Below the pieces are notes generated by a model. The model worked only from the letters and a program-made list of their open reading frames with translations, was not told the origin of the DNA and did not search any database. Positions 23,618 through 26,837 of a stretch of 64,000 bases of DNA are shown piece by piece. Made by a program: the position numbers and the translations under genes. The stretch lies in NCBI RefSeq assembly GCF_056746865.1, contig NZ_CM163382.1, one strand, 5' to 3'. The first letter of the stretch is position 1, and the number at the start of each line of letters is the position of its first letter.

Positions 23618-23645
23618 CCCGTTCCCGGTTGCTGTACCGGGAACG
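23618..23645. terminator. Hairpin terminator between convergent yghB and yqhC
   Basis: cccgttcccggttgctgtaccgggaacg stem-loop followed by T-rich tract. Confidence 0.5.
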
Positions 23646-23648
23646 TAT

Positions 23649-24605
23649 TTAATTCCCCTGCATCGCCCGCATTCTTGCCGCATCTTCCCCCGGCGTCACA
23701 CCGAAGTAACGTTTAAACTCACGGCTAAATTGCGATGCGCTTTCATAGCCGACGCGCATCGCTGCTGCGCTGGCCTTCATGCCGTCATGGATGATCATCA
23801 TCCGCGCCTTATGCAGACGGTAATTCTTCAAATACTGCAACGGCGAGGTACTGGTGACAGACTTAAAATTATGGTGGAACGCCGATACGCTCATGTTGGC
23901 TTCTGCCGCCAGTTGCTCGACGCTCAGGTTTTCGGTGTATTTATTCTCAATCCGTTTCAGCACGCGGCTAATCAGACTGAAGTGAGTCTGGCGACTGACC
24001 AGCGCCAGTAACGCGCCGCCGCAAGGTCCGGTCAGCACGTAGTACAGAATTTCGCGGATGATCTGTTTGCCGAGAATACGCGCATCCAGTGGTCGCTCCA
24101 TCACGTCGAGTAACCGCTCCGCCGCGCATAAAATCTCTTCTGATAACGTGGCGGAGTTAATCCCGCTGGCTGCCATCGACGGCTGGAAATGCTCATCTTC
24201 GCCAATGTCCATCAACAGTTCCTGTAACTGCAAAATATCGACATTGAGACGCAACCCTGCCAGCGGCACCTCTGACGTGGCATAGGTTTCGCACTCAAAC
24301 GGCAACGGCACCGTCAGCAGCAGGTATTCATTGGCATCATAACGAAACACGCGTTCATTGATATAACCGATTTTATGCCCGGAAAAGAGAATTATGATGC
24401 CAGGCTCGTACATCACCGGTGTACGTGCGAAAGGCGTCTCGCCATACAACAAACGCACATCGGGCAACAGTTCTGACAAACTATTTTCTTTATTTTTCAG
24501 TTTATTAACTTTATCCGCCAGCAAGCGGCAAATCTCTTCACGTTTCATATCGCGTAATTTCTTAGGAATAATGCGGCAATTTGATTGTGCGCAATTTTGT
24601 AGCAT
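23649..24605 (-). CDS. yqhC: AraC/XylS-family transcriptional activator of yqhD-dkgA
   Basis: 318 aa from ATG at 24605 (MLQNCAQ...); C-terminal AraC HTH. Confidence 0.85.
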
Positions 24606-24627
24606 TTCTCCAGCACTCTGGAGAAAT
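24604..24627. promoter_or_regulatory. Perfect 10-bp inverted repeat (atttctccag-cact-ctggagaaat) in the yqhC/yqhD divergent control region
   Basis: Read directly; abuts yqhC start codon; candidate operator. Confidence 0.55.
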
Positions 24628-24741
24628 AGGCAAGACATTGGCAGAAATGAGCATTGAGAGCCAGGGCGCTGGCGATCACAATGAAAAACATCAGGCAGAT
24701 CGTTCTCTGCCCTCATATTGGCCCAGCAAAGGGAGCAAGTA

Positions 24742-25905
24742 ATGAACAACTTTAATCTGCACACCCCAACCCGCATTCTGTTTGGTAAAGGCGCAATCGC
24801 TGGTTTACGCGAACAAATTCCTCACGATGCTCGCGTATTGATTACCTACGGCGGCGGCAGCGTGAAAAAAACCGGCGTTCTCGATCAAGTTCTGGATGCC
24901 CTGAAAGGCATGGACGTGCTGGAATTTGGCGGTATTGAGCCAAACCCGGCTTATGAAACGCTGATGAACGCCGTGAAACTGGTTCGCGAACAGAAAGTGA
25001 CTTTCCTGCTGGCGGTTGGCGGCGGTTCTGTACTGGACGGCACCAAATTTATCGCCGCAGCGGCTAACTATCCGGAAAATATCGATCCGTGGCACATTCT
25101 GCAAACGGGCGGTAAAGAGATTAAAAGCGCCATCCCGATGGGCTGTGTGCTGACGCTGCCAGCAACCGGTTCAGAATCCAACGCAGGCGCGGTGATCTCC
25201 CGTAAAACCACAGGCGACAAGCAGGCGTTCCATTCTGCCCATGTTCAGCCGGTATTTGCCGTGCTCGATCCGGTTTATACCTACACCCTGCCGCCGCGTC
25301 AGGTGGCTAACGGCGTAGTGGACGCCTTTGTACACACCGTGGAACAGTATGTTACCAAACCGGTTGATGCCAAAATTCAGGACCGTTTCGCAGAAGGCAT
25401 TTTGCTGACGCTAATCGAAGATGGTCCGAAAGCCCTGAAAGAGCCAGAAAACTACGATGTGCGCGCCAACGTCATGTGGGCGGCGACTCAGGCGCTGAAC
25501 GGTTTGATTGGCGCTGGCGTACCGCAGGACTGGGCAACGCATATGCTGGGCCACGAACTGACTGCGATGCACGGTCTGGATCACGCGCAAACACTGGCTA
25601 TCGTCCTGCCTGCACTGTGGAATGAAAAACGCGATACCAAGCGCGCTAAGCTGCTGCAATATGCTGAACGCGTCTGGAACATCACTGAAGGTTCCGATGA
25701 TGAGCGTATTAACGCCGCGATTGCCGCAACCCGCAATTTCTTTGAGCAATTAGGCGTGCCGACCCACCTCTCCGACTACGGTCTGGACGGCAGCTCCATC
25801 CCGGCTTTGCTGAAAAAACTGGAAGAGCACGGCATGACCCAACTGGGCGAAAATCATGACATTACGTTGGATGTCAGCCGCCGTATATACGAAGCCGCCC
25901 GCTAA
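24742..25905 (+). CDS. yqhD: NADPH-dependent aldehyde reductase (iron-type alcohol dehydrogenase fold)
   Basis: 387 aa from ATG at 24742 ([10 protein letters not shown]...). Confidence 0.95.
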
Positions 25906-26009
25906 GCTTTTTACGCCTCAAACTTTCGTTTTCGGGCATTTCGTCCAGACTTAAGTTCACAACACCTCACCGGAGCCTGCTCCGGTGAGTTCATATAAAG
26001 GAGGAACGT

Positions 26010-26837
26010 ATGGCTAATCCAACCGTTATTAAGCTACAGGATGGCAATGTCATGCCCCAGCTGGGACTGGGCGTCTGGCAAGCAAGTAATGAGGAAGTAA
26101 TCACCGCCATTCAAAAAGCGTTAGAAGTGGGTTATCGCTCGATTGATACCGCCGCGGCCTACAAGAACGAAGAAGGTGTCGGCAAAGCCCTGAAAAATGC
26201 CTCAGTCAACAGAGAAGAACTGTTCATCACCACTAAGCTGTGGAACGACGACCACAAGCGCCCCCGCGAAGCCCTGCTCGACAGCCTGAAAAAACTCCAG
26301 CTTGATTATATCGACCTCTACTTAATGCACTGGCCCGTTCCCGCTATCGACCATTATGTCGAAGCATGGAAAGGCATGATCGAATTGCAAAAAGAGGGAT
26401 TAATCAAAAGCATCGGCGTGTGCAACTTCCAGATCCATCACCTGCAACGCCTGATTGATGAAACTGGCGTGACGCCTGTGATAAACCAGATCGAACTTCA
26501 TCCGCTGATGCAACAACGCCAGCTACACGCCTGGAACGCGACACACAAAATCCAGACCGAATCCTGGAGCCCATTAGCGCAAGGAGGGAAAGGCGTTTTC
26601 GATCAGAAAGTCATTCGCGATCTGGCAGATAAATACGGCAAAACCCCGGCGCAGATTGTTATCCGCTGGCATCTGGATAGCGGCCTGGTGGTGATCCCGA
26701 AATCGGTCACACCTTCACGTATTGCCGAAAACTTTGATGTCTGGGATTTCCGTCTCGACAAAGACGAACTCGGCGAAATTGCAAAACTCGATCAGGGCAA
26801 GCGTCTCGGTCCCGATCCTGACCAGTTCGGCGGCTAA
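26010..26837 (+). CDS. dkgA: 2,5-diketo-D-gluconate / methylglyoxal reductase (AKR family)
   Basis: 275 aa. Confidence 0.95.
   Translation: MANPTVIKLQDGNVMPQLGLGVWQASNEEVITAIQKALEVGYRSIDTAAAYKNEEGVGKALKNASVNREELFITTKLWNDDHKRPREALLDSLKKLQLDYIDLYLMHWPVPAIDHYVEAWKGMIELQKEGLIKSIGVCNFQIHHLQRLIDETGVTPVINQIELHPLMQQRQLHAWNATHKIQTESWSPLAQGGKGVFDQKVIRDLADKYGKTPAQIVIRWHLDSGLVVIPKSVTPSRIAENFDVWDFRLDKDELGEIAKLDQGKRLGPDPDQFGG

Follow-up and report, generated by a model that had tools for sequence, protein, structure and literature searches.

What is the function of the inverted repeat that lies between the divergent genes yqhC and yqhD, and is it an operator of YqhC? A preliminary description of this DNA had proposed that a perfect repeat of 10-bp arms, abutting the yqhC start codon and about 115 bp upstream of yqhD, is the site through which the AraC-type regulator YqhC controls the aldehyde reductase genes yqhD-dkgA. 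We analysed the repeat in its window (the whole 64,000-nt stretch of DNA, to which all coordinates refer unless a locus is named) and in related genomes. The genes had been named correctly. Both yqhD (24742-25905) and dkgA (26010-26837), the regulated genes on the plus strand (24742-26837 together), are above the NCBIfam equivalog cut-offs, and the AraC-type ORF on the minus strand (23649-24548 in its 299-aa form), encoding an AraC_N domain (PF06719) and two AraC-type HTH motifs, is annotated as YqhC: among 5,426 complete E. coli genomes, 5,412 match a 501-bp stretch around the palindrome and annotate the genes on its two sides as yqhC and yqhD. Further perfect inverted repeats lie in the neighbouring gaps. 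One, in the 39 bp that separate yghB from the convergently oriented yqhC, has 10-nt arms (CGTTCCCGGT) with a 6-nt loop (23620-23645) and is probably a shared bidirectional terminator, and the yqhD-dkgA spacer has 11-nt arms (CTCACCGGAGC) with a 2-nt loop (25966-25989), which could be a terminator, an attenuator or an intra-operon processing site.

The palindrome consists of a left arm ATTTCTCCAG (24604-24613), a 4-nt gap CACT (24614-24617) and a right arm CTGGAGAAAT (24618-24627), none of them assigned to a strand. The arms are 100% complementary, and ATTTCTCCAG-CACT-CTGGAGAAAT is thus indeed a perfect inverted repeat of the E. coli chromosome. From its end at 24627 to the yqhD ATG at 24742 there are 115 bp, as had been described, and its centre is at -73.5 if 24689 is taken as the start site of yqhD. 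A search of the 64-kb window for the 24-mer pattern, with up to three mismatches allowed, gives one match (and none in 100 shuffles), and the palindrome is found at a median of one place per genome across the 5,412 E. coli genomes. When perfect inverted repeats are counted (arms of 10 nt or more, loops of 10 nt or less), the window has 21 nested matches (11 places), as compared with 1.06 +/- 1.46 in 100 first-order Markov simulations; because of this excess over the Markov expectation the 24-bp palindrome is not a product of chance, though real sequence is generally enriched in such repeats. We regard a chance palindrome, or a copy of a repeated or mobile element, as a negligible possibility: short palindromes do arise by chance, which is all that speaks for it, and besides the uniqueness just described, the conservation of the palindrome at a fixed position in 78 species (see below) refutes it. 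A repetitive or mobile element (REP, MITE or IS end) was accordingly rejected, given that the window has one copy and E. coli genomes a median of one place each. An intrinsic terminator was rejected as well: there is no T-run after the palindrome on either strand, and the terminator scan did not report the palindrome.

The palindrome itself is not new, being already in print in 2018 and 2021 as a putative YqhC site beside a SoxS-like box. It is shown in the yqhD promoter region by Frazao et al. 2018 (PMC6115493, Fig. 1), who list the SoxS-like box as a separate element, and a 2021 paper (PMC10991953) gives a "24-bp palindrome consisting of two 10-bp repeating units" as a predicted YqhC binding sequence, with reference to Lee et al. 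2010 and Frazao et al. 2018; later papers name EcoCyc beside these two as a source of the 24-bp palindrome. The published sequence is the same as 24604-24627, with no difference in identity. Published experiments also bear on the region. Purified YqhC shifts a 151-bp probe with the palindrome inside (its primers correspond to 24591-24741) and does not shift a control fragment (about 24714-24855) (PMC8262776), and genomic SELEX gave a single YqhC peak, located in the yqhC/yqhD spacer (PMC8249747). What is added here is the conservation pattern, the degeneracy of the half-sites, a 21-bp direct repeat, an overlap with a predicted yqhC -35 and a correction of the start codon.

Scanning species-representative genomes for YqhC gave 80 loci from about 20 genera, with yqhD divergent from yqhC in 79 of them. 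We aligned the DNA from yqhC codon 25 to the yqhD start in 78 sequences (the window plus 77 of the 80 loci). The palindrome is present at a fixed position at all 78 usable yqhC loci, and it is also found in Yersinia and Serratia. Mean identity to the column consensus is 0.57 in the yqhC leader, 0.90 in a -10-like hexamer of yqhC, 0.66 in the 14 bp after this hexamer, 0.95 in the left arm, 0.55 in the 4-nt gap, 0.89 in the right arm, 0.93 in 24628-24660, 0.57 in the spacer of the yqhD promoter and 1.00 in the yqhD -10 (all for the 78 sequences). The arms, at 0.89-0.95 against 0.55-0.66 for the gap and the flanks, thus form a phylogenetic footprint with fixed spacing, and from the yqhC ATG to the yqhD -10 the alignment is free of indels except for two that occur in single sequences. 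None of the 78 Enterobacteriaceae species varies in the core TTCTCCAG (24606-24613) of the left arm; the gap is free in sequence and constant in length; and in the right arm the outer AGAAA(T/C) is conserved, with a variable inner CTG plus fourth base (G/T/A). The palindrome is an ordinary regulatory site: real, functional and strongly conserved. Since identity stays high and spacing fixed up to the yqhD -35, it is the distal end of a larger conserved block of 57 bp (24604-24660, plus strand), which begins with the left arm and extends through the whole yqhD -35 region, and which we propose as a composite YqhC operator.

Conservation of the arms does not extend to their pairing. The palindrome is perfect (10/10) in only eight out of the 78 sequences, the others having six to nine complementary positions, and all breaks of symmetry within the Enterobacteriaceae are changes of the right arm, with no compensation in the left arm. 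Covariation counted over 67 distinct sequences gives a score of 0.020 as compared with 0.018 in shuffles; one pair is doubly changed, 370 out of 500 shuffles do as well, and the fraction of paired cells (83.6%) equals the shuffled value. More distant lineages show what is retained instead. With synteny conserved, Yersinia has TTTTCTACAG / CTGGAGAAAT, so that the change sits in the left arm, and Serratia has TTTTCTACAA / TTGTAGGAAT, in which two positions are altered on both arms; in Pectobacterium and Dickeya only the outer TTTCT/AGAAA is left and the inner palindrome is degenerate (6/10). (In these two genera, the operon begins with a nitroreductase gene, placed after the conserved operator and before yqhD, at 1509-2249 of locus L087 and 1584-2324 of locus L088.) At pair 7 the combinations are C/G in E. 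coli, C/T in Citrobacter, Enterobacter and others, A/G in Yersinia and A/T in Serratia; that is, each arm, read on its own strand, carries G or T independently of the other. Because all four combinations occur once Yersinia and Serratia are added, the comparison indicates that the arms are degenerate half-sites for a protein, with the putative consensus yTGKAGRAAY, and not the stem of a hairpin. The persistence of two-fold symmetry across lineages argues that the inverted arrangement itself has been under selection.

The start codon that the palindrome was said to abut is that of the legacy annotation of K-12 MG1655 (318 aa; 24603-24605, minus strand), which overlaps the left arm by 2 nt. This ATG (24605-24603) is limited to Escherichia and two Klebsiella species (and is ATA in one genome labelled E. 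coli), and the GGAG that precedes it is spaced from it by only 2 nt. By contrast, the conserved start, which is also the RefSeq/PGAP start, lies 57 nt downstream, at Met20 in K-12 numbering (24546-24548, minus strand). Its ATG is conserved in 78 out of the 80 loci as aligned, always 65 nt from the left arm; it has a GGAG-type Shine-Dalgarno sequence before it in 52 out of 80; and YqhC is annotated as 299 aa long in the orthologues and, with its start at 24548, in RefSeq/PGAP non-K-12 E. coli genomes. Moreover, 60 out of the 80 species have a stop codon in frame after the palindrome and before the conserved start. The legacy K-12 start is thus probably wrong or specific to Escherichia, and as the conserved start is Met20 at 24548, the abutting position is an artefact of the legacy annotation.

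We infer a promoter of yqhC from the alignment. A -35-like hexamer TGGAGA (24607-24612, minus strand) is found inside the left arm in 78/78 species, and 17 bp from it there is a -10-like hexamer CACAAT (24584-24589, minus strand), which takes the form CAnnnT in 78/78 species (CACAAT, CACACT and CACTAT are among the variants; A2 and T6 are the most conserved positions, at 97% or above). The arrangement TGGAGA-17-CAnnnT mirrors that of the yqhD promoter, TTGAGA-17-CACAAT, and the layout of -35-like hexamer, 17 bp and -10-like hexamer is retained in Yersinia and Serratia. From this predicted promoter transcription would start near 24577 (NC_000913.3, about 3,155,190, minus strand), with a leader of about 29 nt; the palindrome, centred at about -38.5 of yqhC, would then be outside the yqhC mRNA. 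The published Kim 2012 supplement has no yqhC entry for the start site. In constitutive yqhC mutants yqhC expression is up, and a GFP fusion of 24603-24819, which does not contain the predicted -10, still showed higher expression in such mutants (PMC8262776). A GFP signal without the predicted -10 means that some E. coli transcription starts upstream of the palindrome, or that it comes from the vector.

It is on the yqhC transcript that the palindrome could act as RNA, by forming a hairpin in the leader that sequesters the GGAG and the AUG of the K-12 start, for translational control or stabilisation of the mRNA. Such a hairpin would be stable on the yqhC strand (-14.3 kcal/mol, z = -4.5), it would bury the GGAG and two bases of the annotated AUG, and the signal of the GFP fusion at the legacy AUG implies that some E. 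coli transcripts cross the palindrome (PMC8262776). We nevertheless consider this reading very improbable. There is no covariation (the 83.6% of paired cells being the shuffled value), and a stable C-T or A-G mismatch is kept inside the stem in about 25 species. The AUG to be sequestered is missing from most genera and is just 2 nt from the GGAG, and the in-frame stop in 60/80 species comes before the conserved start. The palindrome is upstream of the yqhD start site, and the yqhC -10 that the comparison predicts lies downstream of the palindrome. A transcript across the palindrome is probably missing in most species as well. The wider 121-nt leader fold is unremarkable (z = -1.25), and a search of Rfam gave no family match (no matches at E <= 1 in 24300-24900).

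On its other side, the palindrome runs into the yqhD promoter. This promoter has its -35 TTGAGA at 24654-24659 and its -10 CACAAT at 24677-24682 (plus strand), both from a promoter scan and from the literature, which gives the start as a C (PMC6115493 and PMC10991953, both citing Lee 2010) that we take as about 24689; the -10 is found in 77/78 species. Site b, AGAAATAGGCAA (24622-24633, plus strand), is made up of the right arm's outer half and the GGCAA that follows it, and is centred at about -62 from the yqhD start. A direct repeat of it, site c, AGAAATGAGCAT (24643-24654, plus strand), is found 21 bp downstream, centred at about -41 and abutting the yqhD -35. The pattern AGRAAT-NN-GCA thus occurs twice on the same strand in the 57-bp block, as AGAAAT-AG-GCA (24622-24632) and AGAAAT-GA-GCA (24643-24653). 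A PWM of site b was built across species and scanned over 127,974 window positions. Within +/-100 bp, and leaving site b itself aside, the best match is site c (+21 bp, same strand), at rank 13 of 127,974 for a motif that was defined post hoc; the next best in the same scan is the left arm on the opposite strand, at rank 81, the left half being without GGCAA. The repeat of sites b and c is a post hoc find with modest support (for the region, roughly p = 0.04). The two sites, at about -62 and -41 of yqhD, are in helical register with the promoter, and the proximal one touches the -35. These are classical positions for an activator, and 21 bp is the spacing of the AraC I1-I2 half-sites.

Farther downstream, the yqhD leader has a hairpin of its own, GGCAGA...TCTGCC (about -9 kcal/mol; 24693-24712, roughly +5 to +24), which is found in nearly all 78 species with differing stem sequences and which is followed by a run of at least four Ts in 57 out of 78, Escherichia not among them. 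It may serve as an attenuator in the leader or stabilise the 5' end. RNAalifold gave no consensus structure for this leader, where the alignment is poor. On the minus strand, the same stem together with GATGTTTTTC scores as terminator-like and would stop antisense transcripts towards yqhC.

The GGCAA part of site b is found in more distant YqhC homologues than the palindrome. YqhC homologues at 45-57% identity have AGGATT(A/G)GGCAA or AATAGGCAA facing the regulated or neighbouring gene, with AGRAWT-rGGCAA as the motif common to the distant homologues, and the promoter-proximal part of the block (GGCAA ... GCAGRAATGWGCATTGAGA) is more deeply conserved than the palindrome, Burkholderiales homologues included. 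Three Burkholderiales loci (Roseateles and relatives), in which yqhD and the yqhC homologue are co-oriented, keep ATAGGCAAAACAC-GGGCAG...GTGCATTG upstream of yqhD, and one of them (L081) has a CACAAT -10 at the matching position. They also have an inverted repeat TTGCCyrTTC-N16-rAATrGGCAA upstream of yqhD (L081, 865-905; L091, 1041-1080; L092, 1066-1105), whose N16 geometry is that of ATTT-N16-AAAT in E. coli and which is without the inner CTCCAG/CTGGAG. Both halves of this repeat carry the GGCAA sub-site, whereas the left half in E. coli lacks it. As the inner arms are degenerate in Pectobacterium and Dickeya and absent in Burkholderiales, they are dispensable for some members of the family. 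The homologues L082-L084 (45-52% identity) say little on the palindrome, since their neighbouring genes are different and they have only a GGCAA-type motif.

Taken together, we think it likely, on balance, that the divergent yqhC and yqhD-dkgA promoters share a composite YqhC operator of about 57 bp whose promoter-distal part is the palindrome. Its two arms, yTG(G/T)AGRAAY placed head to head with a fixed 4-bp gap, would each be a protein half-site, and the right arm would extend through GGCAA into a full monomer site, site b. Sites b and c would then provide the direct-repeat arrangement for an AraC-type dimer that activates the weak sigma-70 promoter of yqhD. As the left arm overlaps the -35-like hexamer of yqhC, YqhC bound at the palindrome would also set the transcription of yqhC; occupancy of the left arm would in this way couple YqhC to its own synthesis, which fits the reported self-regulation. 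The sequence, its conservation, the fixed geometry and, from the literature, in-vitro binding of YqhC to a fragment with the palindrome are observed; direct contact of YqhC with the arms, the sites filled under given conditions and the position of the yqhC promoter are inferred. The earlier proposal of a YqhC operator is borne out in part. A protein-binding regulatory element in a region controlled by YqhC is supported by the conservation, the shifted 151-bp probe and the sole SELEX peak; its perfect symmetry, however, is specific to Escherichia (8/78), and the palindrome is only the distal third of the 57-bp block. As the left arm also holds the -35-like hexamer of yqhC, the role of the palindrome in autoregulation of yqhC may outweigh its role in the control of yqhD.

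Some observations count against a composite operator. The two halves are not equivalent, the GGCAA sub-site being missing from the left one. Also, Lee et al. 2010 reportedly state in their abstract that YqhC binding is abolished by a mutation in the SoxS-like box. This box is a separate element in PMC6115493. A marbox for MarA, SoxS or Rob was rejected here: the consensus AYnGCACnnWnnRYYAAAY is unmatched within three mismatches anywhere in 24550-24740, and its 119 matches in the whole window are no more than those in shuffles (136.7).

The arms could also do separate jobs, the left one as the -35 region of yqhC and the right one as the upstream half of site b, with complementarity as a by-product and no function for the palindrome as such. 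This fits the left-arm TGGAGA, invariant and exactly 17 bp from CAnnnT in 78/78 species in a mirror image of the yqhD promoter, in a layout that is also kept in Yersinia and Serratia; full invariance is seen in the left arm only, and the inner arm sequence is absent from the co-oriented Burkholderiales loci, where there is no divergent promoter. We still hold it to be unlikely, as complementarity at 8-10 out of 10 positions is very unlikely to arise by chance between unrelated elements and non-consensus -35 hexamers are not normally 100% invariant along with two to three flanking bases. Serratia, in addition, altered two positions on both arms together, and the Burkholderiales have an inverted repeat with the same N16 geometry.

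Is the protein at the palindrome YqhC? A different dimeric regulator could bind there alongside YqhC, e.g. a repressor or the factor behind the negative effect of CRP, which has been reported as a negative regulator of both yqhC and yqhD (PMC5297802). Dimeric HTH repressors have a 10-4-10 inverted repeat more typically than AraC-type activators do, and Enterobacterales alone have the inner arm sequence, whereas the GGCAA motif tracks YqhC homologues much further. The arms, however, are unlike the CRP consensus TGTGA-N6-TCACA; the right arm runs on into the YqhC motif that is shared across the family; the palindrome and yqhC co-occur in all 78 usable loci; and the literature on the yqhC/yqhD spacer, as far as found, names no further factor there. 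We therefore judge a second regulator quite unlikely.

If the composite operator is filled by YqhC, the three half-sites suggest a local switch, which we offer tentatively and regard as rather doubtful: a YqhC dimer could exchange half-sites in the manner of AraC, between the inverted pair (off) and the direct pair b and c (on), without a DNA loop. With no inducer, the dimer would sit on the left and right arms, covering the yqhC -35 and leaving site c empty, so that yqhD would be off and yqhC self-limited. Under aldehyde stress it would re-seat on sites b and c, activating yqhD from -41/-62 and freeing the yqhC promoter. If true, the switch would account for the rise of yqhC along with yqhD in constitutive YqhC mutants, and for a left arm whose invariance is limited to loci with divergent genes.

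YqhC and yqhD are widely used in metabolic engineering (tolerance to furfural, glyoxal and glutaraldehyde; aldehyde biosensors). Knowing the bases that YqhC binds, and the promoter and start codon of yqhC, would help the rational design of sensors and promoters and would explain the autoregulation of yqhC. As a discovery the palindrome is of small value, because it has already been described and its proposed role is what is expected for a local AraC-family regulator.

How does this arrangement compare with known systems? The closest parallels are AraC at araI1-araI2/araO2 (pBAD) and the class II arrangements of MelR, RhaS and XylS; YqhC is likewise an AraC-type protein with two HTH motifs and an N-terminal domain for sensing and dimerisation. 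These systems and the yqhC/yqhD region are alike in having direct repeats 21 bp apart (putative half-sites in the case of YqhC), of which the proximal one touches the -35, and in having a divergent regulator gene with its own promoter (predicted, for yqhC) in the same control region. The third half-site could permit an alternative placement of the dimer here. It differs from araO2, which is about 210 bp away: the putative third half-site of YqhC is adjacent, inverted and separated by a 4-bp gap, and implies no DNA loop. The N-terminal domain of YqhC is AraC_N (PF06719) and not the arabinose-binding cupin of AraC, and its induction, unlike that of AraC, has been reported as probably indirect. 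MarA, SoxS and Rob have a DNA-binding fold homologous to that of YqhC (with weak sequence matches to the MarA and SoxS chains), and part of the YqhC site has been called SoxS-like in the literature; MarA and SoxS, however, recognise an asymmetric box as monomers, and the element found between yqhC and yqhD is an inverted repeat.
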